DNA of 34,829 nucleotides from Actinomycetota bacterium (GCA_025963875.1 JAOPZY010000184.1:1-34829), one strand, 5' to 3'; numbered from the stretch's first letter, positions 3,037 through 34,740 are shown. Notes: generated by a model from the sequence alone, not told the origin. Numbers and translations are program-made.

Positions 3037-3130
3037 GCTCGCCGGCCCCGACGTCCGGTCGGTCGCGGGAGCACTCGGCGCATGTGGGCGTTTTCTCTCT
3101 GATGTTCCGGAAAGAATGACATGGCGGCCC

Positions 3131-3155
3131 TATCAAACGTGAGCCAGCCGGCTCT
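3131..3155 (+). promoter_or_regulatory. Putative ECF-type promoter TATCA-N17-TCT (leaderless)
   Basis: cTATCA 3130-3135, TCT 3153-3155, GTG start 6 nt later; same spacing recurs at 4354 and 28764. Confidence 0.45.
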
Positions 3156-3161
3156 CACCTA

Positions 3162-3683
3162 GTGGAGATGGAAACCTACGAGAGCATGAACGAGAACCCA
3201 AAGGGCCGGGAGGTGACTGACGAGATGATGCTCGCTACCCTCCGAGAGGCGGCTGCGGTCAGGGAGCCCGTGCCGGCCAGCGTCCTCCAGGCTGCCCGCG
3301 ACGCCTTCGCCTGGCGACGTATCGATGCCGAGCTCGCTGAATTGGTGGCGGACTCGGCCTTCGAGATGGCGCCCGCCGGGACCCGCGGCGGATGGGAGCC
3401 TCGACACGTGACGTTTGAGGTACCCGGCGGGACCGCGTTGGAGTTGGAAGCCTCTTGCCACGGCGCCGGCATCCGCCTCGTTGGTCAGGTAGTACCCGCC
3501 CGGCCGGGGACCGCCGAGGTGCAGCACCCCGGAGGCAGCGTCGCCGTCGAGGTCGACGAGGTGGGTCGCTTCGCCGCCCACGGCATCCGGCCGGGCCCCA
3601 TGCGGGTCAAGCTCCGACTGGTCACCCCGGACCCGACATGTACGTCACAGCTCGAGATCGTGACCGCCTCCCTGACCCTCTGA
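3162..3683 (+). CDS. Conserved actinobacterial protein with C-terminal carboxypeptidase-regulatory-like beta-sandwich; putative soluble anti-sigma factor
   Basis: EPVP..V..AARDAFAWRRIDAELAELVADS motif; LVGQVVP; VDEVGRF...IRPGPMRV; family recalled as lying beside ECF sigma/CHAT/S8 genes. Confidence 0.7.
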   Translation: MEMETYESMNENPKGREVTDEMMLATLREAAAVREPVPASVLQAARDAFAWRRIDAELAELVADSAFEMAPAGTRGGWEPRHVTFEVPGGTALELEASCHGAGIRLVGQVVPARPGTAEVQHPGGSVAVEVDEVGRFAAHGIRPGPMRVKLRLVTPDPTCTSQLEIVTASLTL

Positions 3684-7767: not shown

Positions 7768-7839
7768 ACGCCTATTATCTTCGGGTTGAAAATGATTCAT
7801 GGCCGCGGCCCCCAACCGTAGCGGAGTACTTAGGAGTCT

Positions 7840-7855
7840 ACCCCTGGTCAGGGGT
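7840..7855. promoter_or_regulatory. Palindromic operator-like site
   Basis: ACCCCTG-GT-CAGGGGT perfect 7 bp inverted repeat in the divergent intergenic region. Confidence 0.4.
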
Positions 7856-11079: not shown

Positions 11080-11083
11080 CCGC

Positions 11084-18094: not shown

Positions 18095-18131
18095 AGCCAA
18101 ACGAAGCCAACTCAACGGGGGAAGGCAGCCG

Positions 18132-18905: not shown

Positions 18906-19047
18906 GGTGTGTCCCCAGCGACTAGGCATTTCGTCCGAGAACGACCATGGCAGAAGATGGGGCAGCTAGCGAAACGCCCATTACCAAGCTGCTAAACTCG
19001 GCAGCATTAACCACACCAATCACACGCACACCCGCAGGTGACCGCGC

Positions 19048-19290
19048 ATGCACTGGCTGAGGCTGACCAACCTCATCGTCCTGATTCACGTCCTGGTGGG
19101 GGGCACGCTCGTGCTCTTCATCCTCCTGCACGCGGGCCGGGGCGGTGGCCTCTCGGACATGTTCGGCGGGGGCATGGGCGGTGGCCTCTCGGGGTCCTCC
19201 GCGGTGGAGCGCAACCTCGACCGGTTCACGGTGGTCCTCGGTTTGATCTTCGGCATCACCACGGTCTTGCTGGCCCTCCGACTCAAGTAG
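19048..19290 (+). CDS. secG: Preprotein translocase subunit SecG
   Basis: Two TM helices around ILLHAGRGGGLSDMFGGG...SSAVERNLDRFT; follows tpiA. Confidence 0.93.
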   Translation: MHWLRLTNLIVLIHVLVGGTLVLFILLHAGRGGGLSDMFGGGMGGGLSGSSAVERNLDRFTVVLGLIFGITTVLLALRLK

Positions 19291-19387
19291 GAATCCGGCA
19301 GCGAGTGCAACGCGCGCCGGGTACCGGGAGTCAAGCATCGGCAGAGTTACAGGCTGAACGCAGTTCCCGACTCCCGGAGGTGAGCTT

Positions 19388-21040
19388 GTGAGCAAACGCA
19401 GGGTCGTACCGGTCGTTGCGTGGGTGGTTGCGCTGGTCATTCTCGCCACGGCCTGCAAGTCGGCCAAGACCGGTGCGCCGGCCGCCACGCCGACGGGGGG
19501 CACCTTCACCGTCGAATCCCAGGAGCCCGGCTCCCTCGATCCACCCCTGGCCTCCGGTTCCGAGGACCTGCGGGTGGTCCACGAGCTCTTCGACGGCCTG
19601 ATTCTCTACGACGACAAGACCGCCGCGGTGACGCCCGGGGTGGCCACCTCCTGGGCACCCAACGCCGACAACACCAAGTTCACGTTCCACCTGCGGTCCG
19701 GCACGAAGTTCTCCAACGGCGAGGACGTGACGGCGGAGAGCTTCGTGCGGGGGATGACCCGCTCCCTCACCCCCAAGTTCTACAACGATCCCAACGGTCT
19801 CGGGTACCACCTCGATGGTGTCCTGGGGGCGGCCGCTGTGAGCAAGGGCGTCACCACGACCCTGACCGGGGCGGTCGCCAAGGACAAGACCACGCTGGAG
19901 GTGGACCTCTCGGCGCCGGATGCCGAGTTCGTCGTGCGGACGGGGCACATGCCGTTCCTCCCGATCCCGAGCGACGCCGCCATGGCCGCTCAGAAGCCGT
20001 CGTGGTCGGAGAACCCGATCGGCAACGGCCCCTTCAAGATGAAGGAGGCATGGGTCCACCAGCAGTCCATCACCCTCGTCCCCAACCCCACCTACTACGG
20101 CACGAAGCCGAAGGTGGACCAGGTCGTCTACAAGATCTTCCCGGACCAGGACACCTCCTACCTGCAGTGGCAGGCCGGTAATCTCGACTGGACCCGCATC
20201 CCCCCGGCGAAGATCCCCGAAGGCAAGGCCCAGAACCCGGGCAACTACATCATCCAGGACGTGGGGGGCATCAACTACCTCTCCACGCGCTACACGCTGG
20301 CACCGACCAGCAACAAGCTCTTCGACCAGGCGATCTCGCTGTCGTTCGACCGCCAGGCAATCTCCAACGCCGTGTTCTCGGGGCTCAACACGCCCGCGGC
20401 GGGGATCGTGCCCCCCCTGATCCCCGGTTCCCAATCCAAGGGCACCAGCGGGCCGTGCAAGTACTGCACCTACGACCCCGCCCGGGCCAAGGCCCTGTTC
20501 AAGCAGTTCACGGATGGCGGCGGCACGGTCAAGGAGCCGTTCCCGATGTACTTCAACGCCGGGGCCGGCCACGACGCCTGGATGCAGGCGATCGCCAACC
20601 AGATCCAGACCACCCTCGGCTTCAAGGTCCAGGCAATCGCCGCGACGGCGCAGTTCACGGGTGCCGAGAGCTACTCGAAGTTCATCGGCAAGGACGCTCC
20701 CGCCAGCGCCAACCGCTTCGGCTGGAGCCTGGACTACCCGACGCCCGACAACTTCCTCTACCCGCTGTTCTCGACGGGCAGCGCCGACAACAAGTCCCAG
20801 TACTCCAACCCGGCGTTCGACGCGCTGATCAAGCAGGCCCGGGCCGAGCCGGACGCCACCAAGCGGGTGAAGATCTACCAGCAGGCCGAGGACATCGTGC
20901 TGGAGGATCTCCCGATCATCCCGGTGTGGTGGCGTACCCAGATCCGGCTGGCGAAGCTGAACAAGTGGGGCGGCCTCGGCATGGACCCGTACGAGGACCC
21001 CGCCGTCCGCACGGTCTACCTCAAGGCAGCCTCGAGCTGA
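19388..21040 (+). CDS. oppA: Peptide ABC transporter substrate-binding lipoprotein (family 5), copy 1
   Basis: Lipobox LATAC; EP.SLDP, LFDGL, A.SW, FTFHLR...KFSNG..VTAE.F, GNGPF, RFGWSLDYP; SD ggaggt. Confidence 0.92.
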   Translation: MSKRRVVPVVAWVVALVILATACKSAKTGAPAATPTGGTFTVESQEPGSLDPPLASGSEDLRVVHELFDGLILYDDKTAAVTPGVATSWAPNADNTKFTFHLRSGTKFSNGEDVTAESFVRGMTRSLTPKFYNDPNGLGYHLDGVLGAAAVSKGVTTTLTGAVAKDKTTLEVDLSAPDAEFVVRTGHMPFLPIPSDAAMAAQKPSWSENPIGNGPFKMKEAWVHQQSITLVPNPTYYGTKPKVDQVVYKIFPDQDTSYLQWQAGNLDWTRIPPAKIPEGKAQNPGNYIIQDVGGINYLSTRYTLAPTSNKLFDQAISLSFDRQAISNAVFSGLNTPAAGIVPPLIPGSQSKGTSGPCKYCTYDPARAKALFKQFTDGGGTVKEPFPMYFNAGAGHDAWMQAIANQIQTTLGFKVQAIAATAQFTGAESYSKFIGKDAPASANRFGWSLDYPTPDNFLYPLFSTGSADNKSQYSNPAFDALIKQARAEPDATKRVKIYQQAEDIVLEDLPIIPVWWRTQIRLAKLNKWGGLGMDPYEDPAVRTVYLKAASS

Positions 21041-21122
21041 TCACCACGGACGACACTGCGGTCGCCCAGCGAGCGGACCGGGTGCCGCCGCTGAAACCGG
21101 GACGGGCTGTGGAGGCGGCGGC

Positions 21123-22061
21123 GTGACGCGCTACATCGTCCGCCGCCTCCTGCAGATGGTGCTCGTGTTCTTCGGGGCGACGTTCCTGCTGTTCGCCGCG
21201 CTGTACCTGCTCCCGGGGGACCCCACCCAGGCGCTCGGCTCCGACCGCACGCTGGCCCCGGCGACCGTCCAGGCGATCCGGGCCCGCTACCACCTGGACG
21301 ACCCCGTCTACGTCCAGTACGCGACCTACATCAAGGACATCGCCCGGGGCGACCTCGGGACCTCGATCCAGCTCCGCAGGCCCGTGAGCCAGATCATGCG
21401 CGATTCCATCCCCTGGTCCGTCAAGCTGGCGCTGTCCGCGACAGCGGTCGAGATCATCCTCGGGATCGGCAGCGGGGTGATCTCCGCCATCAAGCGCTAT
21501 TCGTTCCTCGACACGCTCTCGACGGTGTCGACGAGCGTCCTGATCGCGATCCCGGTCTTCTGGCTGGGGCTCATGCTGCAGATCCTCTTCGGCCTGAAGT
21601 TCCGGGGGACCTTCCTGGGGCTTCCGATCTCGGGCGTCACCGACGGCTGGAAGAGCTACGTCCTGCCCTCCATCACCCTGGCCTCGGCCGTGACGGCCGT
21701 CACGGCCCGCCTGACCCGCACGACGATGCTCGAGGTGATGCGTCAGGACTACGTCCGCACCGCCTCCGCCAAGGGCCTCTCCCGGCGGGCGGTGGTGTTC
21801 AAGCACGCGCTGCGCAACGCCCTGATCCCGGTGGTCACCAACATCGGCCTCGACTTCGGCACGCTCATCGGCGGCGCCATCCTCACCGAGACCGTCTACG
21901 CCTGGCCCGGGGTGGGGCGCCAGGTCTACTTCGCCATCATCGCCCACGACAATCCGGTGATCATCGGGTCGACGATCGTCTTCGTCTTCGCATTCATGGT
22001 CGTGAACCTCATCGTCGACATCTCCTACGCCGTCCTGGATCCGAGGATCCGCTATGTCTGA
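21123..22061 (+). CDS. oppB: Peptide ABC transporter permease
   Basis: YIVRRLLQ, LPGDP, GDLGTS, EVMRQDYVRTASAKGL, KHALRNALIPVVT, GAILTETV..WPGVG. Confidence 0.93.
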   Translation: MTRYIVRRLLQMVLVFFGATFLLFAALYLLPGDPTQALGSDRTLAPATVQAIRARYHLDDPVYVQYATYIKDIARGDLGTSIQLRRPVSQIMRDSIPWSVKLALSATAVEIILGIGSGVISAIKRYSFLDTLSTVSTSVLIAIPVFWLGLMLQILFGLKFRGTFLGLPISGVTDGWKSYVLPSITLASAVTAVTARLTRTTMLEVMRQDYVRTASAKGLSRRAVVFKHALRNALIPVVTNIGLDFGTLIGGAILTETVYAWPGVGRQVYFAIIAHDNPVIIGSTIVFVFAFMVVNLIVDISYAVLDPRIRYV

Positions 22062-23001
22062 CGCGGCAGTCCAGCCCGGACCTTTCGTGGTCGAACCCGT
22101 GACCCCGGGGGGCCTGGACGCCGGGGTAGGGGGGGCCGCCGCCGAACTGCCCATGATGACCCTCTGGGGCGACGTGTGGCGCAGGCTGCGACGCAACAAG
22201 CTGGCCATCCTCGGCAGCGCCATCATCCTGGGGCTGGTACTGACGGCGGCGCTCGCGCCCCTGATCGCACCGTACTCACCGGACGCCCAGAACCTGTCCA
22301 ACTTCCTCGCGCCGCCGTCACTGCGGCACTGGTTCGGCACCGACAACCTCGGGCGGGACTACTTCAGCCGGGTCGTCTACGGCTCGCGGGTCTCGATCAG
22401 CATCGGCATCGTCGCCACATTCATCTCCGTGGCCATCGGGATGAGCCTCGGCGCCGTCTCCGGCTACTTCGGGGGCAAGATCGACGCCGTCGTCATGCGC
22501 GTCGCCGACGTCTTCTTCTCGTTCCCCTTCATCGTCGGGGCGATCATCATCATCACCGCCCTTGGCCCCTCGTTCCCGCGCCTGCTCGCCCTGTTCATCG
22601 CCATCGGCGTGCTCGGCTGGGCGACGGTGGGCAGGATCTTCCGGTCCAGCGTCCTGCAGGTGCGGCAGGCCGACTACGTCGAGGCGGCGCGGGCACTGGG
22701 GGCCGGCCACTTCCGCATCCTGACCCGCCACGTGGTCCCCAACGCGATCGCCCCGGTCATGGTGTACAGCACGATCTACACCGGGCTCGTCATCCTCACC
22801 GAGGCGGCACTGTCGTTCCTCGGGTTCGGCGTCGCGTCCGGGACCCCGGCCTGGGGCCTCATGGTCGCAGACGGCAAGAGCTCGCTCACCAGCCAGCCGT
22901 GGCTGGTCCTGTTCCCGGGCCTGGCGATCGTCCTCACCGTCCTCGGCTTCATCTTCCTGGGCGACGGGTTGCGCGACTCCATGGACCCACGGCTGCGCTG
23001 A
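22054..23001 (+). CDS. oppC: Peptide ABC transporter permease
   Basis: WRRLRRNKLA, HWFGTDNLGRD, DYVEAARALGA, RHVVPN, EAALSFLG, GDGLRD. Confidence 0.93.
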   Translation: MSDAAVQPGPFVVEPVTPGGLDAGVGGAAAELPMMTLWGDVWRRLRRNKLAILGSAIILGLVLTAALAPLIAPYSPDAQNLSNFLAPPSLRHWFGTDNLGRDYFSRVVYGSRVSISIGIVATFISVAIGMSLGAVSGYFGGKIDAVVMRVADVFFSFPFIVGAIIIITALGPSFPRLLALFIAIGVLGWATVGRIFRSSVLQVRQADYVEAARALGAGHFRILTRHVVPNAIAPVMVYSTIYTGLVILTEAALSFLGFGVASGTPAWGLMVADGKSSLTSQPWLVLFPGLAIVLTVLGFIFLGDGLRDSMDPRLR

Positions 23002-23002
23002 C

Positions 23003-24124
23003 GTGACGCCGGAGGTCGGCGACATCCCGGAGCCGTCCGAGGCCGGCGCGCCGCTGCTCGACATCCGCGACCTCCGGGTCCACTTCTTCACGGACTTCGG
23101 CGTCGTGAAGGCGGTGGACGGCGTGAGCTACTCGCTGGCCGCGGGGGAGACCCTGGCGATCGTGGGGGAGTCCGGCTCCGGCAAGAGCGTCAGCGCCCTC
23201 GCCACGATGGGCCTCATCGCCCCGCCGGGCAGGGTGGTGTCGGGCAGCATCTGGTTCCAGGGGCGGAACGTGCTGGAGCTGGACGAGGAGGAGCTCCGGC
23301 GGATCCGGGGCAACCGCATCGGGATGGTGTTCCAGGACCCCCTGACCTCCCTGAACCCGGTCTTCTCGGTGGGGTCGCAGATCGCCGAGGCCGTGCGCGC
23401 CCATTCCAAGGTGGGACGTCGGGCGGCGAAGCGCCGTGCCGTCGAGATGATGGAGATCGTGGGCATCCCCAACGCTGCGGAGCGCACCGGCGACTACCCC
23501 CACCACTTCTCAGGCGGCATGCGCCAGCGAGTCATGATCGCCATGGCGCTCGCGATGAACCCGGCCCTCCTCATCGCGGACGAGCCGACCACTGCGCTGG
23601 ACGTCACCGTGCAGGCCCAGGTGCTCGACCTCCTGTCCTCCCTGCAGGAGGAGTTCAAGATGGCGATGGTCCTCATCACCCACGACCTCGGCGTGGTGGC
23701 CGAGCAGGCGGACAGGGTGGCGGTCATGTACGCCGGACGGATCGTGGAGCAGGCCTCCGTCGACGACCTGTACTACCGGCCGCAGCACCCGTACACGATG
23801 GGGCTGATGAGCTCGATCGCCCGCCTCGACCGGGAGCGGACCGGCCGGCTCCACCCCATCAAGGGCCAGCCGCCGAGCCTGGTCAACGTCCCGCCCGGCT
23901 GTGCCTTCCACCCCCGCTGCCCCTACGTGCAGGACATCTGCCGCCGGGAGCGCCCGGAGCTGGTCGCCCATGAGGTCGCTGGCACGTCGGCCTGGTCGAA
24001 GGGGGGCGAGGAGGCTGGGATCGGCGACGCGGAACACCTTGCCGCCTGCCACTTCGCCGGTGCGCTGCCCGACCTGCCCGCGGAGGCCGCAGAGGCAGCG
24101 GGGACCGCAGGGGCCGCAGGGTGA
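23003..24124 (+). CDS. oppD: Peptide ABC transporter ATPase
   Basis: [49 protein letters not shown]. Confidence 0.94.
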
Positions 24125-25227
24125 GTCGCGCCGCTCCCGTCCCCACCATGCCCGCTTCCGACGCCGACTCCGCCGAGCTGCTCTCGGTGCGGCATCTCGT
24201 GAAGCACTTCCCGGTCACGCAGGGCATCGTCTTCAAGCGGCAGGTCGGCACCGTCAGCGCCGTCGAGGACGTCTCCCTGTCCATCCGCAAGGGCGAGACG
24301 CTCGGGCTGGTGGGGGAGTCGGGGTGCGGCAAGTCCACCGCGGCACGGTGCATCCTGCGGTTGCTCGAGCCCACGTCGGGGTCCCTCCTGTTCGAGGGGG
24401 AGGACTTCACCCGGGCTGGCCGGGGGCGGATGCAGGAGCTGCGGCGGGAGATGCAGATCATCTTCCAGGACCCCTTCTCCTCGCTGAACCCCCGGATGAC
24501 CGTACGCAGCATCGTTTCCGAGCCGTTGATCATCCACGGCATCTACGAGCGTGAGGGGGGCATCTCCTACGTCGGGGACCTGCTGGAGCGGGTGGGGCTC
24601 AACCCCGAGCACGGCAACCGCTATCCGCACGAGTTCTCGGGCGGTCAGCGCCAGCGGATCGGTGTGGCCAGAGCCCTGGCGCTGCGCCCGAAGCTGATCA
24701 TCTGCGACGAGCCGGTGTCGGCACTGGACGTCTCCGTGCAGGCCCAGATCGTCAACCTGCTCGAGGACCTGCAGGACGAGTTCGCCCTCACGTACCTCTT
24801 CATCGCCCACGACCTGTCGATCGTCCGGCACATCAGCGACCGGGTGGCGGTCATGTACCTGGGCAAGATCGTCGAGGTCGGCGACCGCACCGACCTGTAC
24901 GAGCGCCCCCTGCACCCCTACACCCAGGGCCTGCTGTCCGCCATCCCCGTCCCGGATCCCAACAAGGAGCGCGGCCGCGAGCGGGTCATCCTGCGGGGCG
25001 ACGTCCCCAGTCCCCTCAACCCCCCGTCGGGGTGCCGGTTCCACCCCCGCTGCTTCCGGGCCGAGGAGGTGGCTCGTACCCAGGCGGTCGACACCGTGGG
25101 GGTGGGGCGGAGCGGGCGGCTGGTGCCGAGGATCTGCACCGAAGAGGAGCCTGCCCTCGTGGAGCGGGGCTTGGGGCCGCTGCACCCCGCGGCGTGCCAC
25201 TTCGCCGTCGTGAAGGACGTCGTGTGA
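24121..25227 (+). CDS. oppF: Peptide ABC transporter ATPase
   Basis: [53 protein letters not shown] overlap. Confidence 0.94.
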
Positions 25228-25556
25228 CCCGGGTCGTTGTCCTTGCCGTCACGGCCCTCGTCCTGGCGCTGGCGCTGGGCGGCGCCGCGTGGAGTCAGGC
25301 GCCGGCCCCGTCGGGCGGGGCGTCGCCCTCGGGTTGCCAGGCAGACCAGCTCTGCATTCCGCAGAGCCCGGCGCCCGGGTCGAATGGCGGGTCTGATGGG
25401 GGCCAGGTGCTGGTGGGTCACGACCCGCCGTCCCACTTCGCCCGCTCGCTCGTGACGATGGGCTGCATCGCCCTGGTCCTGGGGGTCTACCTGGTCATGG
25501 CCGTGACGGGCAAGCGCCTGCCGCTGCCGCGCCGGAGGGCCGGGGGCCGGCGCTGA
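25224..25556 (+). CDS. Small membrane protein (signal peptide, low-complexity loop with Cys pair, C-terminal TM, basic tail)
   Basis: GTG overlapping oppF stop (GTGA); [52 protein letters not shown]; fills the gap between oppF and the next gene. Confidence 0.7.
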
Positions 25557-27286
25557 GGCGGCGGTCTTCGTTCGGCCGCCGCCTGGGGCTGGCCGTCCTC
25601 CTCGTCTGCGTCGCGGTTGGCGTCGTCATGGTGCGGGGCAGGCTCAACCGGTCGACTGCGTCGGGGACCGCGAAGAACCGGGCGGCGGCGGCCTTCGACA
25701 CCAACGCCGGCATCGTGTACTCGCTGGACGAGGAGCCGGTGAACTTCAACTTCCTCACCTCGGACGGGAACGGGGTGGCGATGCTGCAGATCGTCGACCG
25801 CGTCTGGCCGTCGGTGTTCCACGCCGACCCCGCAGCGATCGTCTCCATGGACAAGGCGTTGATGGACTCGGTGACGCTGGTCTCGTCCAACCCGCAGACC
25901 GTCGTCTACAACGTCAACCACCGGGCGACGTGGCAGGACGGCGTCCCCTTCAACGCCGACGACTTCGTCTACAACTGGCAGGCCCAGTCGGGGCTCCCGC
26001 AGTACACGGACGTCGGCGGTGTGCCGTTCGACGCGGCAAGCACGGTCGGCTACAACCAGATCGCGAGCATCACGGCGTCCCCGGACAAGTTCACGGTGAC
26101 CACGACCTACTCCACGCCGTTCGCCGACTGGAGGAGCTTGTTCTCCCCCATGGCTCCGGCCCACATCATGCAGAGGGTCGGCTGGAACAAGGGGCTGCTG
26201 CCCGCAGCCGTCGGTGCCGGCACCTTCATCTCCGCCGGGCCGTTCCTGTTCGCGTCGTACACCCCGGGCAAGGACTTCGTGCTCAACCGCAATCCGCAGT
26301 ACTGGGGCACGCCGTCGAACCTGGCGACCGTTGACTTCCGCTTCGTCAACGACCCCGCGCAGGTGGCGTCGGGTCTCGCCGGCAACGAGATCGACGCCTC
26401 CTATCCCCAGCCCGAGCTCGATCTGGTCCGCCAGCTCAAGAAGGTCCCGACCCTGAAGTTCGACGAGCGGCCCGGTCTGACCTACGAGCACCTGGACTTC
26501 AACGAGGCCAACCCGTTCCTGGCCGACGTCAACCTGCGGCGGGCGATCGCGCTGTCGATCGACCGCACGGACCTGATCGCCCAGACGGTCGGTCAGTACG
26601 CCACCGGCATCGTGCCCGACAACAACCACTTCTTTGCGCCCGGCCAGCCCGAATACCGGGACAACTCCGGCGGCTGGACCACCGCCACCGCCACGGCCGG
26701 CGGGCCGTATGACCACGCCGACATCGAAGGGGCCAGGCGGTTGCTCGCCGGCAGCGGCTACATCCTGAGCCGCGGCGTGCTCACCAGGGCCGGGAGACCG
26801 GTCACGCTTCGGATCACCTCAACCCTGGGGAACACCCTCCGCACCGCCGAGGAGGCCTACGTCATCGCCCAGCTGGCGAAGATCGGCATCAACGCCACCG
26901 AGCAGGACACCGCAGGACTGCGCACTACGCTGAGCTGGCACGACTTCGACCTGATCATCTTCGCCTGGTCGGACACGCCGTTCCCATCGGGCTCCGATCC
27001 GATCTTCCAGACGAAGACCAGGTCCACCGGCGCCCAGAACTACGACTCGTACGCCAACCGGACGGTGGATGCCCTCATCGGCCTGGCGGGCCTCGAGCTC
27101 GACCACGCCAAGCAGGTGTCCCTGTACAACCAGGCGGATGCCATCCTCTGGAAGGACATGGTGACGCTGCCGCTCTTCCAGAAGCCCACCCTGCTCGTGT
27201 ACCAGTCGAGGTACAAGAACATGGTCAACAACATCACCACGGAGGGCCCGGTCTCCAGCATGGAGCAGTGGGGCCTCCCGAAGTGA
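25553..27286 (+). CDS. Family 5 ABC substrate-binding protein, copy 2 (N-terminal TM anchor; probable CTG start)
   Basis: TWQDGVPFNADDF, SAGPF, RNPQYWG, YEHLDFN, LRRAIALSIDR, LPLFQKP; in-frame upstream extension [25 protein letters not shown] from CTG 25553; first ATG is 25628. Confidence 0.85.
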   Translation: MRRRSSFGRRLGLAVLLVCVAVGVVMVRGRLNRSTASGTAKNRAAAAFDTNAGIVYSLDEEPVNFNFLTSDGNGVAMLQIVDRVWPSVFHADPAAIVSMDKALMDSVTLVSSNPQTVVYNVNHRATWQDGVPFNADDFVYNWQAQSGLPQYTDVGGVPFDAASTVGYNQIASITASPDKFTVTTTYSTPFADWRSLFSPMAPAHIMQRVGWNKGLLPAAVGAGTFISAGPFLFASYTPGKDFVLNRNPQYWGTPSNLATVDFRFVNDPAQVASGLAGNEIDASYPQPELDLVRQLKKVPTLKFDERPGLTYEHLDFNEANPFLADVNLRRAIALSIDRTDLIAQTVGQYATGIVPDNNHFFAPGQPEYRDNSGGWTTATATAGGPYDHADIEGARRLLAGSGYILSRGVLTRAGRPVTLRITSTLGNTLRTAEEAYVIAQLAKIGINATEQDTAGLRTTLSWHDFDLIIFAWSDTPFPSGSDPIFQTKTRSTGAQNYDSYANRTVDALIGLAGLELDHAKQVSLYNQADAILWKDMVTLPLFQKPTLLVYQSRYKNMVNNITTEGPVSSMEQWGLPK

Positions 27287-27365
27287 CGCCCGACCTTGCA
27301 TCCGGCGGGCGGGTGCGAAATACCACCGTATGGGTGGAAAATCGGTCCCACCCCCGGTGGTCACG

Positions 27366-28676
27366 TTACCAGCCGACGATGGCGCCTCCGCCCTTGGGTA
27401 TCGGGACCCGGGGCACGCCCGCCGCCTGGATGAGCTGGAAGGCGGCATCGCGGACCGTGATGCCATCCCGTTCCGCCAGGGCCGCGATGGCACCGGCCAC
27501 CGCCGGGGTCGCGAACGAGGTCCCGGTCCACCTCGCCCAGCCCTCGAAATCTCGGGCTGCCAAGGACACCCCGCTGGGAAGGGGAAGCACAGCATCGTCC
27601 CACTCCAGGAAGAAGGTGCTTACCCAGTCCCCGATCGCCCAGGCGTCGACCCACCATCCGAAGTTGCTGTAGGAGGCCGGGGGCGTCTGATCGGAGGCCT
27701 GCGCCCGGGGGGCGCTCTCCGCGCCGGGATCCAGGGCGCCCACCCCGAAGACCCGCTTCTGGGCTGCGGGCCAGAACGGTCTGGCCACTCCCTGGTTGCC
27801 GGCAGCGGCGACCACCACGATCTCGGGCGGTAGGGCGGCGATGGTGGCCCCCAGCGCCAGCAGCGGCGCGTCGTTGTCGGTGAACGCACCGAACGAGAGG
27901 CTGAGGATGTCGGGCCTCTCCCTCTCTACCAGTTCGACGAGGGCGTTGCGGGCGTCGATCTCGGTGGCGAAGCCTTCGCTGTCGAGGACGCGATGGAGGG
28001 CCACACGGGCGTAGGGGGCGGTCTGGAGCACGACGCCAGCGCAGAAGGTGCCATGACCCGCTTCGTCGTCGAGGTGTCCGTCTGGGGGGAGCCTGTCCCG
28101 GAGGTCGTCGTCGTGGGCGGGGTCGTCGACCGCGCAATTCTCCAGGAAGGGGTGCTCGGGACGGGTGCCGTCCAGGGCGATGCCCGTGTCGAGAATGCCC
28201 ACGGTGATCATGCCCGGCTCACCCGGGGTGGCGTCAGTCGGGGGATCCGCCGGCTCCGCGAAAGAGATGGGGCCTCCCGGGTTGCCCATCACATCTCCCG
28301 CTCCGGTCATGATGAGGTTGGGTGCCACCAGAGGAATGCGTCCCGATTCGGGGTCCCGCCGGCGCAGGATCGCCAGGAGCTCGGGCACGGTCTCTTCGGT
28401 TTCGATCTGGAGATGGGCCACTCCGTGAAGGGCCTTGCCGACGGGGTTCACCTCGGCGCCGAAGATCCCCAGCCTCGCTGCGACGATGTCGAGGTCACCG
28501 GCGTTGACGAGAATCTCGTTCGGGCGGTACAGATACCCGGGTCCTACCGCGATGTCTCCGGCTGCGATCCGCCTCCTGAGCAATTCCTCACGGTAGCGCC
28601 TCCGAATCGACGGCGGTAAGCGGTCCTGCTTGACGCCGACACGTTCTGCGTCGTCTGGCTCCTCGGAATACCGCAC
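27366..28676 (-). CDS. S8/S53 subtilase-family serine protease, no signal peptide
   Basis: Triad ILDTG, GHGTFCAG, GTSFATP; oxyanion AAAGN; SD gaggggg before GTG 28676; charged N-terminal pro-region. Confidence 0.92.
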   Translation of the reverse strand: MRYSEEPDDAERVGVKQDRLPPSIRRRYREELLRRRIAAGDIAVGPGYLYRPNEILVNAGDLDIVAARLGIFGAEVNPVGKALHGVAHLQIETEETVPELLAILRRRDPESGRIPLVAPNLIMTGAGDVMGNPGGPISFAEPADPPTDATPGEPGMITVGILDTGIALDGTRPEHPFLENCAVDDPAHDDDLRDRLPPDGHLDDEAGHGTFCAGVVLQTAPYARVALHRVLDSEGFATEIDARNALVELVERERPDILSLSFGAFTDNDAPLLALGATIAALPPEIVVVAAAGNQGVARPFWPAAQKRVFGVGALDPGAESAPRAQASDQTPPASYSNFGWWVDAWAIGDWVSTFFLEWDDAVLPLPSGVSLAARDFEGWARWTGTSFATPAVAGAIAALAERDGITVRDAAFQLIQAAGVPRVPIPKGGGAIVGW

Positions 28677-28738
28677 GTCAGTGTCCCCCCTCGGTCGCAG
28701 TTCGTTGCGGATGCTCGCGCACAAGCCTCTTCAGGAAA

Positions 28739-28778
28739 AGGACCACATTCCCGACTGCTTGATACACGGAGCTATCAT
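28739..28778. promoter_or_regulatory. Divergent S8/CHAT control region: GTATCA-N17-TCCT (- strand), TATCAT -10 (+ strand), TGATA-N8-TATCA palindrome
   Basis: TGATAC 28760-28765; TATCAT 28773-28778; minus-strand TCCT 28742-28739. Confidence 0.45.
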
Positions 28779-28810
28779 TTCGCAGCCGTTGGCCTGACCG
28801 GGAGGTGAAG

Positions 28811-31471
28811 GTGGGCGGTGCCAAAGAAGCCCCGAGCACCGCCGAAGCGCTGCGCCTGGTCCAGACCGATCCCCACCGGGCACGACAGGTGGCGACGGCC
28901 TGCCTCGAACATTCCGAGGCGGCGGGGGACCCGGCCGGGATAGCGGCGGCGCAACGGGCCCTGGGGCTCACCGCGCGCCAACTCGGAGATGTCGAGGGTG
29001 CGATCGGCCTGTTCCGGGCGTCCATTGCGACGGCGGAGGGCGCCGGGTTGGCCAAACCGGCGGCCGAGGCACGCATGAGCCTGAGCGTGGCCCTCGCCTT
29101 TCGGGGGGATCTCGCGCAGGCCCTCCGCGAGACCGACCTGGCCGCAGGCGTGCTCCGCGGAGCCGATGCTGCTGCGCTGCAGATGAACCGCGCCCTCGTT
29201 CTCCAGCTGCTTGGTCGCTCCCAGGATGCACTCGACGGCTACCGGCTGGTGCTGGCGAAGTTTCGGCGGCAGGGCAATGTTCTCTTGGAGGGCCGGTGCC
29301 GCAACAACCGTGGGCTGCTGCATTGGTCGCTCTGGGATTTGAAGGCTGCCGAGGACGACTTCGAGCACGCCGAGCGTCTCTTCCTGGAGCTCGGCCAGGA
29401 TCTTGCGGTCGCCGACGTGCGGTGGAACCTCGGCATACTCGCAGCGCGGCGGGGAGACGTCCCGTCCGCCCTTGCGCTGCTCGATGTGGCGGACGAGTAC
29501 TACGACCGCCATCACATCCCGCGGGCGTACCACTTCATTGACCGGTGTGAGGTGCTGCTGTCTGTCCACCTCGTCGCCGAGGCTCGCCGCGAGGCGGAAC
29601 GAGCGGTCGAGGAGCTCTCTCGGGCGAAGCGGGGGCTGCAGCTTCCCGAAGCCCAGCTCAGCCTCGCCCACGCGGCCCTCCTCGACGGCGACGCGGCGAC
29701 CGCCGTCGCCAACGCGGACGAGGCGCGTCGAGCCTTTGCCGCACAGCGCCGGCCGAGCTGGCAGGCGCTGGCAAGATTCGCCGGGATCCGGGCAGCCCTG
29801 CTGGGTTCGGAGCGGACCCCCGCGACCTTGCGGGCTGCTCGCCGGACCGCGCAGCTCCTCGAGAGCCTGGGCTGGGCCGTTCCGTCGGCGGAGGCTCGCG
29901 TGATCGCCGCTCAGGTTGCCCTGCAGCTCGGGCGCCCTGGTATCGCGGCTTCCGAGCTCAAGCAGGTGAGCCGGGCGCGCCGCTCGGGCCCCGTCCAGCT
30001 GCGGATCCAGGCGTGGCACGCCGAAGCGCTCCTGCGCTCAGGGCGGGGGGACAAACGCGGCGCCGACGGGGCGCTGCGGGCGGGCCTGCGCATCCTCGAG
30101 GGGCACCGGGCCGCGCTCGGGGCCACCGAGCTCAGGGTCCACTCCTCGATGCACGGCACCGAGCTGGCCCAGCTCGGTCTCCGGCTGGCTCTGGAGTCGG
30201 GCGATCCCGGGCGGGTGCTGGCCTGGGCGGAGCGGTGGCGAGCGGCCACCCTGTTGCTGCCGCCCGCCAGGGAGGGGGAGGGGGCCGGCGCAGCGCTCCG
30301 CCACGACCTCACCGAACTCCGTCTCGTCGTGGCGGAGCTGGAGAAGGCGGCCCTCGAAGGCAGGGAGACGGCGGGGCTCCTTCGGCGCCAGGCGGCGCTG
30401 GAGCGGGCCGTCCGCCAGCGCACCCGCCAGGCTGCCGGTGGCGCGGCGCACGACGCAACGGTCGTGAAGGCCGCCGTCTTGAGGGCGGCGCTCGGGGATG
30501 CCGTCCTCGTCGAGCTGGTCGAGATCGATGGAGAGTTGTACGCCCTGGTTGTCCGGGCCGGGGGAGTGCGCCTGCATGCGCTGGGGCCGCTCGCCGCCGT
30601 CGTGGATGAGCTTGACGCGTTGCGCTTTGCCCTGCGCCGGCTTGCCCGGCCCGGTGGCTCGCCGGAACGGGCGGCAGCGGCGGGGGCGTCCGCGGCGTTC
30701 TCAGGGGACCGTCTCGATGCGCTCCTGCTCCGGCCCCTCCGCCCGGAGCTCGGAGAGGGGCCGCTGGTGATGGTCCCGACGGGCGCGCTCCACGCTCTGC
30801 CCTGGGGCCTGCTGCCCACGTGCCGTGGGCGTCCCGTGAGTGTCGCTCCGTCGGCGACGTTGTGGCACCGGGCGCAGGCAAGGGATCGAGAGGATCGGCA
30901 GGCCAGGGATGCCGCGCGGGTGGTCCTTGTCGCAGGGCCGGGCCTTGCGGGGGCCGCGGCGGAGGTTATGTCGCTGCGCCGGCGCTACCGGGGAGCCCAG
31001 AGCTTCACACCCAGGGCGGCCACGGTGGAGTCGGTCCTGTCCGCCCTCGACGGCGCTTCGCTGGCCCACATCGCCGCCCACGGGCGCTTCCGGGCCGACA
31101 ACCCGCTCTTCTCCTCCCTCCTGCTCGCCGACGGCCCGCTGATGGTCTACGACATCGAGCGGATGCGGCGGGCGCCCCGGCAGATCGTCCTGTCCGCCTG
31201 TGACTCGGGTGTGTCGGGCGTCCGGCCCGGCGACGAGCTGATGGGCCTCGCAGCCGCGCTCTTCGCCCAGAAGGCGAGCACGCTCGTGGCGAGCGTCGTC
31301 CCGGTCTCCGATGAAGCCACCCGGCCCCTGATGCTGCGGTACCACAAGGCGCTCCAGGCCACCGGCAGCCCGGCCGCCGCCCTCGCCAGGGTCGGGCAAG
31401 CCGCGGTAGGTGATGACCCCGCTGCCTATGCGGCTGCAGCGGCGTTCGTGTGCTTCGGGGCCGGCTGGTAG
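28811..31471 (+). CDS. TPR-CHAT caspase-like cysteine protease
   Basis: N-terminal helical TPR-like repeats (NRALVL...GR..DAL; NNRGLLH; WNLGIL...GD...AL); AERWRA; LVMVPTGALHALPW; catalytic HIAAHG and VLSACDSG; F.CFG terminus; GGAGG SD favours GTG 28811 (alternative 28805). Confidence 0.92.
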   Translation: MGGAKEAPSTAEALRLVQTDPHRARQVATACLEHSEAAGDPAGIAAAQRALGLTARQLGDVEGAIGLFRASIATAEGAGLAKPAAEARMSLSVALAFRGDLAQALRETDLAAGVLRGADAAALQMNRALVLQLLGRSQDALDGYRLVLAKFRRQGNVLLEGRCRNNRGLLHWSLWDLKAAEDDFEHAERLFLELGQDLAVADVRWNLGILAARRGDVPSALALLDVADEYYDRHHIPRAYHFIDRCEVLLSVHLVAEARREAERAVEELSRAKRGLQLPEAQLSLAHAALLDGDAATAVANADEARRAFAAQRRPSWQALARFAGIRAALLGSERTPATLRAARRTAQLLESLGWAVPSAEARVIAAQVALQLGRPGIAASELKQVSRARRSGPVQLRIQAWHAEALLRSGRGDKRGADGALRAGLRILEGHRAALGATELRVHSSMHGTELAQLGLRLALESGDPGRVLAWAERWRAATLLLPPAREGEGAGAALRHDLTELRLVVAELEKAALEGRETAGLLRRQAALERAVRQRTRQAAGGAAHDATVVKAAVLRAALGDAVLVELVEIDGELYALVVRAGGVRLHALGPLAAVVDELDALRFALRRLARPGGSPERAAAAGASAAFSGDRLDALLLRPLRPELGEGPLVMVPTGALHALPWGLLPTCRGRPVSVAPSATLWHRAQARDREDRQARDAARVVLVAGPGLAGAAAEVMSLRRRYRGAQSFTPRAATVESVLSALDGASLAHIAAHGRFRADNPLFSSLLLADGPLMVYDIERMRRAPRQIVLSACDSGVSGVRPGDELMGLAAALFAQKASTLVASVVPVSDEATRPLMLRYHKALQATGSPAAALARVGQAAVGDDPAAYAAAAAFVCFGAGW

Positions 31472-31508
31472 AGCGGCAACAGGAGACCGGACTCTAGGAT
31501 GCCCACCA

Positions 31509-33104
31509 ATGGTTCGCCTGATTGGCCGCAGGAAGCGTCCCACGCTCGTCGCGGGCCTGGCCCTCGTTCTTCTCGCCGGCGCCTGCCAGAGCGGCGCCCT
31601 GGCGGAGCCGCCCGCAACCCGCGTCTTCAGAGTCGGCACCGCGCCGCCGGCTTCCCTCGATCCGGTGCTCGCCTCCCAGCCCCAGGAGCGGCTGGTGGCC
31701 AGGCAGCTCTTCGACGGGCTCGTTCGCTACGACGACACGACCGCCGCCGTCGTGCCCGACGTCGCCACGTCGTGGAAGATCAATGCCGCCAACACCGTCT
31801 TCACGTTCCACCTCCGCCCCAAGGCCCGCTTCTCCAGCGGCGAGTACGTGACGGCGCAGAGCTTCGTCCGCGGGCTCACCCGAGCCCTCACCCCCACGGT
31901 CTACCGTGCTCCGGGGTCGCTTGGCTACGAGCTGGACGGGATCGCCGGGGCGGCCGACGTGGAGAGCGGGAAGGCGGCCACCCTTTCGGGTGCGCGGGCC
32001 CTGGACGACGCCACCCTTGAGATCCGGCTGTCGGTCCCCGACGCCCAGTTCCTGGTCCGCTGCGCTGACGCCGCCTTCTCGCCGATGCCGAGTGACTCGG
32101 CGATGGCTGCCCGGCTGCCCTCCTGGAAAGCGTTTCCGCTCGGCAACGGTCCGTTCCAGCTGGGCGGGCCCCTGGTGGCCAACCAGCCGATCGTCCTCGT
32201 GCCCAATGCCCTCCACGCCGGCGGGCATCCGAAGGTGGCCCAGGTGGCGCTCTCGCCGTACCGGGATGTCGGCGCCGCCTACGCCGCCTGGAGATCGGGG
32301 CAGCTCGACTGGACGGCATTCCCGCCGGACCGCACCGGCGAGGTGCGCCATCTCTACCGCCCCAGCTCCCTCATCCGGCCCACCGCAGGGCTGGACGGGC
32401 TTGTCCTTCCCCTGACGACCCCACCCACCGACAACCCGCTCTTCCGTCAGGCGCTCTCGCTGGCCATCGACCGGACGAGGATCGGCCGCTATGTCGTGGG
32501 GAATTCGCTCCTGCCGGCCAACGGGCTGGTCCCGCCCCTCGTCCCGGGCGCCGGGGCATCGAGCCCGACCGCCCCGTGCCCGGTGTGCGCGTACGACCCG
32601 GGCCGGGCACGGCAGTTGCTGGCGCAGTCGGGGGTGAAGGTCGCCGGCGTCTTCCCCCTGTACTTCGCCCAGGGAACGGGTGAGGAGGCGTGGGTCCGGG
32701 CCGTGGCCGGCGACATCGCCTCCGTCCTCGGCATCGACGCCAGGGCGATGCCCCTGCCAGTGGGGCCGGCGGTTCCTCCGGGTGCTACGGCTCTCGCCCG
32801 GCCGATGCGCTACCCGACACCGGACGACTTCCTGGTACTCCTGGTGGGGAGCGGCGGCCGGAACAACACCTCCGGCTACGCCAATCCTGCGTTCGATGCG
32901 CTGGTGGCCTCTGCCCCGTCGGTTTCGGATCCCGGCCTCCGGGCCGCTCGGTACCAGCAGGCCGAGCGGCTTGCCCTCGCGGACCTGCCCATCGTTCCGG
33001 TGTTCTGGCAGCGCAGCTTCCGCCTCGCCCGGCTCAAGGGCTGGAAAGGGCTCGGGATGGACGCCTTCGGTGATCCGACCCTGGCGAGCCTGGCGCCGAA
33101 GTAA
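31509..33104 (+). CDS. Family 5 ABC substrate-binding lipoprotein, copy 3 (paralog of copy 1)
   Basis: Lipobox LAGAC; LFDGLVRYDDTTAAV.P.VATSW, GNGPF, SGYANPAFDAL; TAGGAT -10 at 31495-31500 8 nt before ATG. Confidence 0.88.
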   Translation: MVRLIGRRKRPTLVAGLALVLLAGACQSGALAEPPATRVFRVGTAPPASLDPVLASQPQERLVARQLFDGLVRYDDTTAAVVPDVATSWKINAANTVFTFHLRPKARFSSGEYVTAQSFVRGLTRALTPTVYRAPGSLGYELDGIAGAADVESGKAATLSGARALDDATLEIRLSVPDAQFLVRCADAAFSPMPSDSAMAARLPSWKAFPLGNGPFQLGGPLVANQPIVLVPNALHAGGHPKVAQVALSPYRDVGAAYAAWRSGQLDWTAFPPDRTGEVRHLYRPSSLIRPTAGLDGLVLPLTTPPTDNPLFRQALSLAIDRTRIGRYVVGNSLLPANGLVPPLVPGAGASSPTAPCPVCAYDPGRARQLLAQSGVKVAGVFPLYFAQGTGEEAWVRAVAGDIASVLGIDARAMPLPVGPAVPPGATALARPMRYPTPDDFLVLLVGSGGRNNTSGYANPAFDALVASAPSVSDPGLRAARYQQAERLALADLPIVPVFWQRSFRLARLKGWKGLGMDAFGDPTLASLAPK

Positions 33105-33129
33105 TGGTGGGCATGGGGGTCATGCCGCA

Positions 33130-34740
33130 GTGAGGCGGCCTCGATCCGGGGCCGTCCTCGTCGTGGCCGTCCTTGCTTTCGCTGCACTTGACCTGGTTGC
33201 GTGTACCGGCTCGAAGACCCCCAACGTTGAATCGGCGACGACGCTCACCGAGCTCCGGATCGGGGTCCGCCAGCCGTCCACCCTCGACCCTGCCATGCGG
33301 GCGAACCCCTCCGATCTGCTCGTCGCCCGCCAGATCTACGAGCCGCTGGTGGGCTTCGACCCGCAGACCGGGGCGCTGCTCCCGCGGCTGGCAACGTCCT
33401 GGCAAGTCCTGAATGGCGGGACGGGCTTCCGGTTCCATCTGAGGCCCGACGCCCGGTTCCAGGACGGGGTGACGGTCACCGCGAACGATGTCGCCTTCGA
33501 GCTCAACCGCCTCGCCCGCAAGGACACGAACTCGAGCCTCGCCCACCTCCTGATGCCGGTCGTCGGCTACGACCAGGTCCATGGCACCGGCGAGGCGACG
33601 GAGCTGGCCGGCGTCAAGGTCGAGGACCCGCGCACCCTCGTCATCACCATCACGCAGCCGTGGTACGAGTTCCCCTACGTCCTCGCCGATCCCTCGACGG
33701 CGCCCATTCCGGCGGCCAAGTTCCAGTCCGACCCCGCAGCCTTCCTTCGCCATCCGACCGGGTCGGGCCCCTACGCGCTTGCTTCCGGCTCCGCCCTCCC
33801 GGGCAACCTCGTCCTGGAGCGTTCGAAGCACTACTGGGGGCCGCTCCCGGCGGTTGCCACCGTCCGCTTCGTCAGCGGCGGGTCCCCGTCGGCGGCCCTC
33901 GGCGGCCTCAGGGCGGGGCGCATCGACATCGGGGATGTCGCGCCGGACGCCATGTCGCAGGCGCTGCGCGACTTCGGGAGCCGCGGCTTCACGCCGCTGG
34001 CCGCCGAGATCTCGCTCGGATTCAACCTGACCGATCCGGCGCTCAAGGACCCCCGCCTGCGCCGTGCCGTCAGCATGGCCGTCGACCGCCAGGCGATCGG
34101 CAAGAAGGTCTACGGAGACGTCCTCGTGCCCGCCGACGGCCTCATCCCGCGGGGCCTGCCAGGACACACGGAGCTGGCGTGCGCCGACTCGTGCGTTCAC
34201 GACCCCGCGGGGGCCAAGGCGCTGGTGCAGCAGGTGTCGGGCACCGCCCGGCCCGAGATCGCCTACGACTACCCGCGGAGCGGGACGAACGACGCCGTGG
34301 CCCAGGAGCTCAAATCGGAGCTGGACGCCGCCGGCATCACCCTCGTCCCACGACCGCACGCCCCGATCGACTTCCTGTCCGCGCTCAACACGAACAGCCA
34401 GCAGATGTTCCTGCTGATCTGGGTGGCCGACTACCCCCTCGCCGACTGGTTCCTGGCCCCGCTGTTCAGCGCCAACTCGCCCGACAACCACAGCGGCTAC
34501 AACGACCCGGCGGTCCAGTCCCTCATCGACGCCGAGCGCTCGGATGGGGACCTCGTGCCCCGCCTGGGCCTCGAGAAGCAGATCGAGCAGAAGGTGCTGG
34601 CCGACCTGCCCGTCACGCCGGTGGGCTTCTTCCGCAACCACTACGCAGCCGCCACCCGGGTCCAGGGCTTCTACGTGGACGTGCTGGGCGGCTTCGACGT
34701 GGCCCGCCTCAGCCTCGGCGCCGCGCCGTCGGGTTCGTAG
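33130..34740 (+). CDS. Family 5 ABC substrate-binding lipoprotein, copy 4
   Basis: Lipobox LVAC; PSTLDP, IYEPLV, PRLATSW, FQDG..VTA.DV, GSGPY, LRRAVSMAVDR, WVADYP. Confidence 0.88.
   Translation: MRRPRSGAVLVVAVLAFAALDLVACTGSKTPNVESATTLTELRIGVRQPSTLDPAMRANPSDLLVARQIYEPLVGFDPQTGALLPRLATSWQVLNGGTGFRFHLRPDARFQDGVTVTANDVAFELNRLARKDTNSSLAHLLMPVVGYDQVHGTGEATELAGVKVEDPRTLVITITQPWYEFPYVLADPSTAPIPAAKFQSDPAAFLRHPTGSGPYALASGSALPGNLVLERSKHYWGPLPAVATVRFVSGGSPSAALGGLRAGRIDIGDVAPDAMSQALRDFGSRGFTPLAAEISLGFNLTDPALKDPRLRRAVSMAVDRQAIGKKVYGDVLVPADGLIPRGLPGHTELACADSCVHDPAGAKALVQQVSGTARPEIAYDYPRSGTNDAVAQELKSELDAAGITLVPRPHAPIDFLSALNTNSQQMFLLIWVADYPLADWFLAPLFSANSPDNHSGYNDPAVQSLIDAERSDGDLVPRLGLEKQIEQKVLADLPVTPVGFFRNHYAAATRVQGFYVDVLGGFDVARLSLGAAPSGS

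Follow-up and report, generated by a model that had tools for sequence, protein, structure and literature searches.

A divergent pair of protease genes of an Actinomycetota bacterium, encoding an S8 subtilase and a protease that combines an N-terminal tetratricopeptide repeat (TPR) region with a C-terminal CHAT domain, is probably the protease half of a module of the ECF54 type (ECF, extracytoplasmic function sigma factor) and would work, together with an ECF sigma factor and a small soluble protein, here denoted c3, as a switch. The pair lies in a stretch of 34,829 nucleotides (JAOPZY010000184.1; hereafter, the window), which is contig C170 of a soil metagenome-assembled genome (G000; 3.84 Mb, 94.6% complete, ~69% G+C). 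The four genes of the module are co-conserved across related loci, and the genome itself keeps all four parts in a dispersed form: the S8 and CHAT genes, each present in a single copy, c3, and two paralogous sigma factors on contigs C14 and C129. The module is best read as a CRISPR-independent, protease-gated sigma switch.

A conserved four-gene module

Related loci were collected by scanning one genome per species with an alignment of the CHAT protein; 444 of the 549 candidate stretches encode a relative, and the best 80 were kept. All 80 have Actinomycetota titles, the search being restricted here to the relatives found in this phylum (other phyla were not searched). The open reading frames (ORFs) of these loci are frames that passed a filter on the G+C content of third codon positions (GC3), with starts that are often too long; they were clustered and then searched again with the cluster profiles. 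Co-occurrence was counted in a set of 49 well-flanked loci, with at least 6 kb on either side of the CHAT gene, which are among the same loci from which the profiles were made.

Four genes recur in these loci, namely, CHAT, S8, an ECF sigma factor of ~200 amino acids (aa) and c3, of ~160 aa. In the well-flanked set, 44 of the 49 loci have S8 at a distance of no more than 6 kb from CHAT, 41 have the sigma factor and 45 have c3 at this distance; all three partners are this close in 37/49, and only a single locus (L073) has none of them. The commonest arrangement is an S8-sigma-c3 operon divergent from CHAT. S8 is missing from five of the 49 loci (L011, L061, L064, L065 and L073), and in two other loci (L041 and L072) S8 is present with both the sigma factor and c3 absent within 10 kb. 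L011, L061, L064 and L065 represent an S8-less variant with the co-directional order sigma>c3>CHAT.

The association was also surveyed in 301 evenly chosen Actinomycetota genomes, with cut-offs of E <=1e-80 for the CHAT profile and E <=1e-60 for the S8 profile. CHAT is present in 30 of the 301 genomes, from 23 of 204 genera, and S8 in 14; both occur in 12 genomes, in 11 of which they are adjacent and divergent. These counts include an unpublished genome (G196), and a family relative used below (G003) is also unpublished. Closer to the source genome, the distribution is also patchy: hits were obtained in 3 of 5 members of its family and in none of the 25 others of the order/class sample.

The first-pass annotation, made from the DNA of the window without database searches, had anticipated that homologues of the two proteases would be co-conserved, that an ECF sigma factor and a small partner would recur next to them, and that the protein encoded at 3162-3683 could be this partner. 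The survey bears out all three expectations: the latter protein is the window copy of c3, which in most related loci stands beside the sigma factor, S8 and CHAT. The window itself departs from the canonical arrangement, with c3 25 kb away from the protease pair, a decayed sigma gene before c3 and the sigma factors on other contigs.

The two proteases

The product of the first gene matches the Pfam family Peptidase_S8 (6.2e-21, 75.4 bits, cut-off 21.8) and contains the motifs DTG, GHGTF and GTSFATP; that of the second gene matches CHAT (3.3e-33, 115.8 bits, cut-off 24) and TPR_12 (1.4e-07) and contains HIAAHG and LSACDSG (coordinates are given in Table 1). The triad residues D179, H224 and S403 of S8, as well as the oxyanion Asn, N310, are invariant in 26/26 aligned relatives (S8 residues are numbered from TTG 28724), and H759 and C799 of CHAT are invariant in 22/22. 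The closest relatives align over the full length, at 77-90% identity for S8 and 81-92% for CHAT. When the sequence profile of the CHAT family was compared with the PDB, only TPR proteins appeared among the best 60 of the 118 matches.

The start of S8 is more likely GTG 28676 than TTG 28724, because the former is preceded by GAGGGGGG and yields the same 436-aa protein as the gene call of the collection (P0123). With this start, and that of CHAT at 28805 or 28811, the two genes are head to head across a gap of 128-134 bp. No signal peptide or membrane helix was detected by hydropathy in either protein, and the CHAT protein has no membrane-helix-like segment besides the conserved core strand of the CHAT domain. 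The S8 frame extends for only two codons 5' of the TTG, which leaves no room for a hidden signal. Thus, the original description of the pair, as two intact proteases facing away from each other across ~135 bp and both devoid of signal peptides, was accurate.

The structural model of S8, built with 26 sequences (pLDDT 79.6, pTM 0.84), consists of a disordered N-terminus, one helix, a prodomain, a linker and the catalytic domain. The best Foldseek matches of this model in the PDB, over 400-478 columns, are unprocessed pro-subtilisin E, pro-Tk-subtilisin, ProN-Tk-SP and fervidolysin. With the pro-subtilisin structures 3whi_B, 2e1p, 3afg_B and 1r6v (E-values from 2.8e-14 to 6.9e-13, 404-478 columns), the model shares the prodomain and the catalytic fold, with the triad and the oxyanion Asn intact, at a sequence identity of only 17-20%. 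It differs from them in having no signal peptide, and in a disordered or helical N-terminal extension of ~55 residues and a poorly modelled linker of 30 residues. Weak signals in the sequence point to the prodomain as well: a profile alignment to the Tk-subtilisin precursor that includes its propeptide, Fervidolysin_NPro-like matches in 2 of the 26 S8 family members, and, in the Atlas search, prodomain leads only (0.80-0.82). Because the model and its pro-form matches agree with these signals, the window S8 is predicted to be a signal-less, cytoplasmic zymogen resembling pro-subtilisin, as the pro-region assigned to it at the outset would imply.

Elsewhere in the family, the location of S8 appears to be different. 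A signal resembling those of twin-arginine translocation (Tat) substrates (SRRRLL, an Ala-rich stretch and then A-x-A) is present in ~20 of 120 S8 homologues, all from a Micromonosporaceae clade (Micromonospora, Solwaraspora and their kin; loci L014, L019-L034, L036, L040, L074 and L078), and the other ~100, the window protein included, have no export signal. The CHAT and c3 partners of the Tat-type S8 carry no signal, and neither do any of the other module proteins in those loci. The Micromonosporaceae S8 is therefore probably exported and its CHAT partner cytoplasmic, so that cleavage of S8 by CHAT would not be the universal core of the module. This signal in one clade, like the five loci that have no S8, argues against a universal cytoplasmic cascade from CHAT to S8; the early proposal that CHAT cleaves the S8 pro-region fails as a general rule, and the cytoplasmic location then assumed for S8 stands for the window protein and not for that of the Micromonosporaceae.

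Some S8 proteins contain exact peptide repeats, namely, three copies of VGAYPFIQ in L059, three of HADNHA in L072 and two of a related hexamer in L081. Among the 68 ORFs of the S8 cluster, arrays of three hexamers are limited to L059 and L072; two copies occur in L081 and, by chance, in L020_5 and L040. No hexapeptide repeat array was found in the window S8.

c3 and the sigma factors

The c3 family, with 760 representatives at E <=1e-30, has no name in databases. In the model of the L052 member (36 sequences, pLDDT 78.7), two helices (residues 14-31 and 37-60) are joined by a disordered linker (~61-79; pLDDT <50 at residues 61-63 and 69-74) to a confidently modelled C-terminal beta-sandwich, which, in a fold search, resembles only generic Ig-like and macroglobulin-like domains (best Z 9.1). 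Across 143 representatives, the best-kept positions are a helix motif, W-R-T-x-D-A-E-L-A-E-L-x-x-D-S, an Arg in the linker (~90%) and the core of the sandwich. Weak Pfam matches to CarboxypepD_reg were obtained for 21 of 36 members. In the genome studied here, c3 is a single-copy gene.

The module sigma factors, of ~200 aa with Sigma70_r2 and Sigma70_r4 domains, pass the ECF superfamily model TIGR02937 (66-79 bits, cut-off 42.9), which is a general model and not a profile of the ECF54 group. The two sigma factors on contigs C14 and C129 are 50% and 46% identical, respectively, to a canonical module sigma, and in the tree they group as sisters within the clade formed by the sigma factors linked to the module. 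No intact sigma gene precedes the window c3. A congeneric genome (G002) retains, between c3 and an aldo-keto reductase gene, 52 aa that can still be read as sigma region 4; what is recognisable of the sigma gene in G001, also from this genus, and in the window is limited to the last ~50 nt. Both G001 and G002 have two module-type sigma factors each, and the family relative G003 has one, adjoining c3. Given the remnant beside c3 in G002 and the two sigma factors elsewhere in all three genomes, the genus appears to have lost the sigma gene next to c3 while keeping two copies at other sites.

The surroundings of the sigma gene on C14 (~17846-21469, corresponding to 4846-8469 of locus L092) are peculiar. 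The gene lies between two opposite-facing halves of a Ser/Thr kinase gene: the plus strand encodes the N-lobe, and the minus strand encodes the C-lobe together with a membrane helix and a Big_2 domain. This looks like an inversion of ~1.4 kb or a misassembly; the inverted repeats near the breakpoints are weak.

Promoter-like sites before S8 and c3

Promoter-like sites of the ECF54 type are located upstream of S8 and, within the sigma gene remnant, upstream of c3 (Table 1), and both differ from the published ECF54 words by one or two mismatches. The S8 site is the top match in the whole genome (23.4 bits) to a matrix derived from the S8-upstream regions of other loci, a test that is not fully independent because the matrix includes a fairly close relative, L037. 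Compared with L037, the S8 promoter block is conserved and its flanks have diverged, and another family relative, G004, has GTATCAG-N15-CTCA before S8. At the c3 site, three genomes of the genus share the block TCCGGAAAGAATGAC..CTATCAAA..CTCTCA, which ends in CTATCAAA-N-CTCTCA. More broadly, the strict motif is present in the S8 start region of 7 of the 40 loci from outside the Micromonosporaceae (background frequency, 0.006 per 600 nt), and in several loci the motif is found inside the 3' end of the sigma gene, directly 5' of c3. The retention of the motifs before S8 and c3 despite the loss of the neighbouring sigma gene suggests that the dispersed module is still wired, with the proteases and c3 belonging to the regulon.

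Further matches to the matrix precede genes that are unrelated or of unknown function (C136:5763, C121:3094, C122:1195 and C40:12249), one of them hemA-like, and the matrix-based search of the genome for a regulon returned no coherent gene set. A sigma-70 promoter scan gave 0 sites, the 2 terminator-like sites obtained correspond to the chance level, and no Rfam family matches the region 26500-32000.

Relation to known systems

The kind of system described here is not new, having been catalogued as the gene context of ECF54 in 2015 and 2021; this context is credited to Huang et al. 2015 by Casas-Pastor et al. 2021 (PMC7826278) and by a review (PMC8999054). In the supplement of the 2021 classification, a CarboxypepD_reg-like protein is recorded at position +1 with 0.61 copies per ECF, the subtilase with 0.68 and CHAT with 0.71. 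The group is described there as limited to Actinobacteria, with a TPR noted, no anti-sigma factor known and the promoter motif GTATCAG (-35) / CTCC (-10) (PMC7826278); the argument of the review rests on the conserved carboxypeptidase, subtilase and CHAT proteins near ECF54 (PMC8999054). The module thus has in common with the catalogued context the ECF sigma factor, the CarboxypepD_reg-like protein downstream of it, the subtilase, the TPR-CHAT protein, the motif and the provenance from Actinomycetota. The window differs in the dispersal of the parts, in the decayed sigma gene beside c3 and in being embedded among genes of an Opp-type peptide importer, which the available accounts of the group (PMC7826278 and PMC8999054) do not mention. 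A 4Fe-4S protein is placed nearby by Casas-Pastor et al. (PMC7826278) and was not seen in the window. A full-text literature search for 'ECF54' found no experimental study of the group. ECF54 is among the sigma groups without a known regulator or signal, and its context of a small soluble protein and two proteases resembles, in a CRISPR-free form, the switches from protease to sigma factor that were recently solved in type III CRISPR systems.

Among these switches, the closest likeness is to Craspase, in which the TPR-CHAT protease Csx29 cuts Csx30 and thereby frees CASP-sigma (PMC10028731). Both systems combine a cytoplasmic TPR-CHAT protease with an ECF-type sigma factor and a soluble, inhibitor-like partner; in Craspase, the partner is cut in a flexible loop, which relieves the sigma factor, whereas in the module such a cut is only proposed. 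Cas7-11 and the crRNA are part of Craspase and not of the module, the place of Csx31 is taken here by the subtilase, and Csx30, at 565 aa, is unrelated in size to c3. In the type III-B system of Haliangium ochraceum, SAVED-CHAT activates PCaspase by cleavage, and PCaspase in turn cuts a sigma factor and a small inhibitor (bioRxiv 10.1101/2023.06.23.546230). In that system, as in the module, the genes for a sigma factor and a small protein accompany those for two proteases. Its sensor is SAVED, which responds to cA3, and its second protease a caspase; the module has a TPR region and a prodomain-bearing serine subtilase instead, and lacks both a kinase gene and a CRISPR or CBASS link. In the DdvA-DdvS system of Myxococcus xanthus, TPR-CHAT is coupled to the control of an ECF sigma factor, with proteolysis proposed as the mode of release (PMC11506125). 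DdvA unites a zinc anti-sigma domain with a TPR-CHAT located in the periplasm in a single transmembrane polypeptide, in contrast to the separate, soluble and cytoplasmic TPR-CHAT of the module. By curated models, the window CHAT protein appears to belong to none of these three families: it scores 16.8 bits against the Csx29 model NF041237 (cut-off 300), Pfam identifies in it only TPR families and CHAT, with no SAVED domain, and there is no Pfam match to the zinc anti-sigma domain zf-HC2.

The independence from CRISPR that was initially proposed for the pair is upheld: the window contains no CRISPR-like array, Pfam found no cas families among its 27 ORFs (Cas7-11 itself was not searched genome-wide), and Cmr2-type Cas10 was not found in the 94.6%-complete genome.

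The companion proposal of a stand-alone anti-phage or abortive-infection cascade, with CHAT as the sensor and S8 as the executioner, fared worse, and we consider it very unlikely. CHAT and subtilase proteases activate bacterial gasdermins. CHAT proteases also serve in type III CRISPR defence (PMC10028731; bioRxiv 10.1101/2023.06.23.546230), the patchy distribution of the family would fit a defence system, and the GC3 values of S8 (0.83) and CHAT (0.85) are below those of the adjoining transporter genes (0.94-0.97). However, PADLOC yields only matches of 22.8 bits ('subtilase') and 19.3 bits (BovA), the score against the Csx29 model is far below its cut-off, and none of the 27 window ORFs is a defence, mobile-element or toxin gene, the neighbours being housekeeping and transport genes. 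No Pfam gasdermin family was found among these ORFs; a genome search with PF04598 gave no match either, which says little because no control genome matched. The proteases are constantly accompanied by a sigma factor and by a small protein that does not look like a toxin.

A proposed protease-gated sigma switch

The mechanism that we propose for the module has precedents in Craspase, SAVED-CHAT/PCaspase and DdvA-DdvS. In the resting state, c3 would hold the sigma factor, or otherwise block the pathway, via its helical N-terminus. The CHAT protease would be turned on when the TPR region senses a signal, and would then cut c3 in the disordered, Arg-bearing linker and so free the sigma factor. The freed sigma factor would direct additional transcription of S8 and c3, which in canonical loci form an operon with the sigma gene itself. 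S8 might be a second protease that completes the job, or a regulated output. In the Acidimicrobiia-like lineage, this circuit would be coupled to peptide import.

Several observations weigh against this scheme. First, c3 has no recognisable anti-sigma domain: it was rejected as a known anti-sigma factor after Pfam, NCBIfam, a sequence search of the PDB, Foldseek (generic folds) and VIA produced nothing specific, with an Atlas match to a zf-HC2 cluster (0.83) that is a lead only. Sigma-c3 fusions, which would speak for the scheme, are rare (P0499 and P0408, 2 of the best 150 representatives) and may be gene-calling artefacts, because the sigma and c3 genes often overlap by 4 nt. Second, the promoter evidence is uneven. 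The pattern TATCAR-N15-STCY, for which 0.16 matches are expected in the window and exactly two exist, one 5' of S8 and the other 5' of c3, was composed after both sites were known; the c3 site is outside the 12 best window matches of the matrix from other loci; there is no motif before the two sigma genes of the genome; and none of the 23 S8 start regions from Micromonosporaceae contains the strict motif. Third, the local circuit, which no longer has a sigma gene of its own, might have been rewired or have ceased to work in part, and the window c3 has Ser at the position where ~90% of the relatives have their last Trp.

Taken to the extreme, the latter points would make the pair a decaying leftover that no longer works as a module here, following the loss of the sigma gene and the dispersal of the parts; the sigma remnant, the distance to c3 and the location of the sigma factors on other contigs, as well as the missing Trp, would all fit. 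This reading is highly improbable, in our estimate. No catalytic residue is missing from either of the intact protease genes, which have full-length relatives at high identity, the promoter blocks of S8 and c3 are conserved amid diverged flanks, and all three genomes of the genus have retained two sigma paralogues.

Association with peptide importer genes

In the window, the protease pair is flanked by a six-gene Opp cluster (19388..27286) on one side and by two genes for substrate-binding protein (SBP) lipoproteins on the other; the window harbours 4 of the 9 SBP_bac_5 genes of the genome. No terminator-like site was found between the SBP genes downstream of CHAT (31509-34740). This proximity recurs in one lineage: 8 of 19 Acidimicrobiia-labelled loci have an SBP_bac_5 gene together with a permease gene at most 10 kb from CHAT, compared with 1/31 unclassified or other loci and 0/26 Micromonosporaceae loci. 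The gene orders vary. In L009, ATPase<c3<sigma<S8 is divergent from CHAT>SBP>permease>permease, with gaps of 13-27 bp; L038 has CHAT>ATPase>sigma>c3, with gaps of 1, -7 and 4 bp; in L052, permease<permease<SBP<S8 is divergent from CHAT>sigma>c3; and in L045, a public locus with the same order as G003, sigma-c3 is followed by Opp genes and then by S8/CHAT. Opp genes run in the same direction as S8 or CHAT, separated from them by 1-37 bp, in the window and in L009, L038 and L052.

A single orthologous 'module transporter' was considered and rejected, as the SBPs linked to the module are distributed over at least three distinct branches, where they intermingle with further SBPs from G000. Since the linked SBPs are not one orthologous set, the pattern suggests that Opp genes were repeatedly recruited to the module, the loci coming from related organisms and not being independent. 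An 'SBP' assigned to L012 was discarded as a false cluster assignment, the protein being actually a cyclase/AAA_16 protein. What appears to be new here is the interleaving of the module, often operonically, with Opp-type importer genes in Acidimicrobiia-like lineages, together with the Tat-like signal on the Micromonosporaceae S8; a literature search found no paper linking the module with an Opp importer. The interleaving in this one lineage suggests a candidate signal, or a candidate output, of the circuit.

If the importer belongs to the output, S8 could do so as well. Under this alternative, the CHAT and c3 sigma switch turns on S8 and the Opp importer for the scavenging of proteins and peptides, and the two proteases never act on each other. 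The Tat-like signal on S8 homologues whose CHAT partners have none, the position of S8 as the first gene behind a sigma-type promoter, and the close, co-directional Opp genes are all in its favour. We nevertheless regard it as unlikely, given that the window S8 and most of its homologues have no export signal, a broad cytoplasmic protease being an odd nutritional output, that the Opp linkage is confined to Acidimicrobiia-like loci, and that the adjacency of S8 and CHAT is far stricter than that of an ordinary regulon member.

If, conversely, the importer delivers the signal, the protease-gated switch could be completed by a specific ligand. Quorum-sensing systems of the RRNPP type combine a TPR receptor with Opp import. 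By this logic, the TPR-CHAT protein of Acidimicrobiia-like organisms might be a cytoplasmic receptor for oligopeptides imported by Opp, the binding of which would cause CHAT to cut c3 and free the sigma factor. We put this forward as a speculative extension that is more doubtful than not by a wide measure; if true, it would represent a peptide-sensing circuit with RRNPP-like logic, combined with a proteolytic, sigma-factor output.

Table 1. Features of the module and its surroundings in the window
Feature	Position (nt)	Strand	Details and basis
c3 promoter-like site	3131-3155	+	TATCAA-N15-CTCT, inside the sigma remnant
Decayed 3' end of sigma gene	3037..3161	+	carries the c3 promoter-like site
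c3, small soluble partner	3162..3683	+	173 aa
SBP_bac_5	19388-21040	+	Opp/Dpp-type importer; Pfam
Permeases	21123-22061, 22054-23001	+	Opp/Dpp-type importer
Importer ATPases	23003-24124, 24121-25227	+	Opp/Dpp-type importer
Second SBP_bac_5	25628-27286	+	converges on S8, 80 bp gap
S8 subtilase gene	27366..28676	-	436 aa from GTG 28676; longest ORF, to TTG 28724, 27366-28724
S8 catalytic residues	D179 28188-28190; H224 28053-28055; S403 27516-27518	-	alignment
S8 prodomain (predicted)	~28305-28556	-	residues ~57-140, beta-alpha-beta-beta-alpha-beta; model
S8 other regions (predicted)		-	residues 1-37 disordered, 141-170 low-confidence linker, 173-426 catalytic domain; model
S8 promoter-like site, ECF54-type	28740..28765	-	GTATCAA-N15-GTCC, ~65 nt 5' of the GTG start
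TPR-CHAT protease gene	28805..31471	+	888 aa; start GTG 28805, or GTG 28811 after GGGAGG
TPR-like helical region		+	residues 1-~600; Pfam
CHAT domain	30704-31459	+	residues 634-885; Pfam
CHAT catalytic residues	H759 31079-31081; C799 31199-31201	+	alignment
SBP_bac_5 lipoprotein gene	31509-33104	+	37 bp after the CHAT stop; lipobox LLAGAC
SBP_bac_5 lipoprotein gene	33130-34740	+	25 bp after the preceding SBP gene; LVAC

Other genes of the window

The interval between rpsB and pyrH (10438-11084), where tsf is usual, contains no GC3-supported frame and no Pfam match among the scanned ORFs. On the minus strand, positions 5218-7863 encode an 881-aa protein of unusual architecture, with an HD_5 (HD-GYP-like) domain and four IPT/TIG domains, and a second protein of this kind, HD_5/HDOD, is encoded next to c3 (3753-4550, minus strand).

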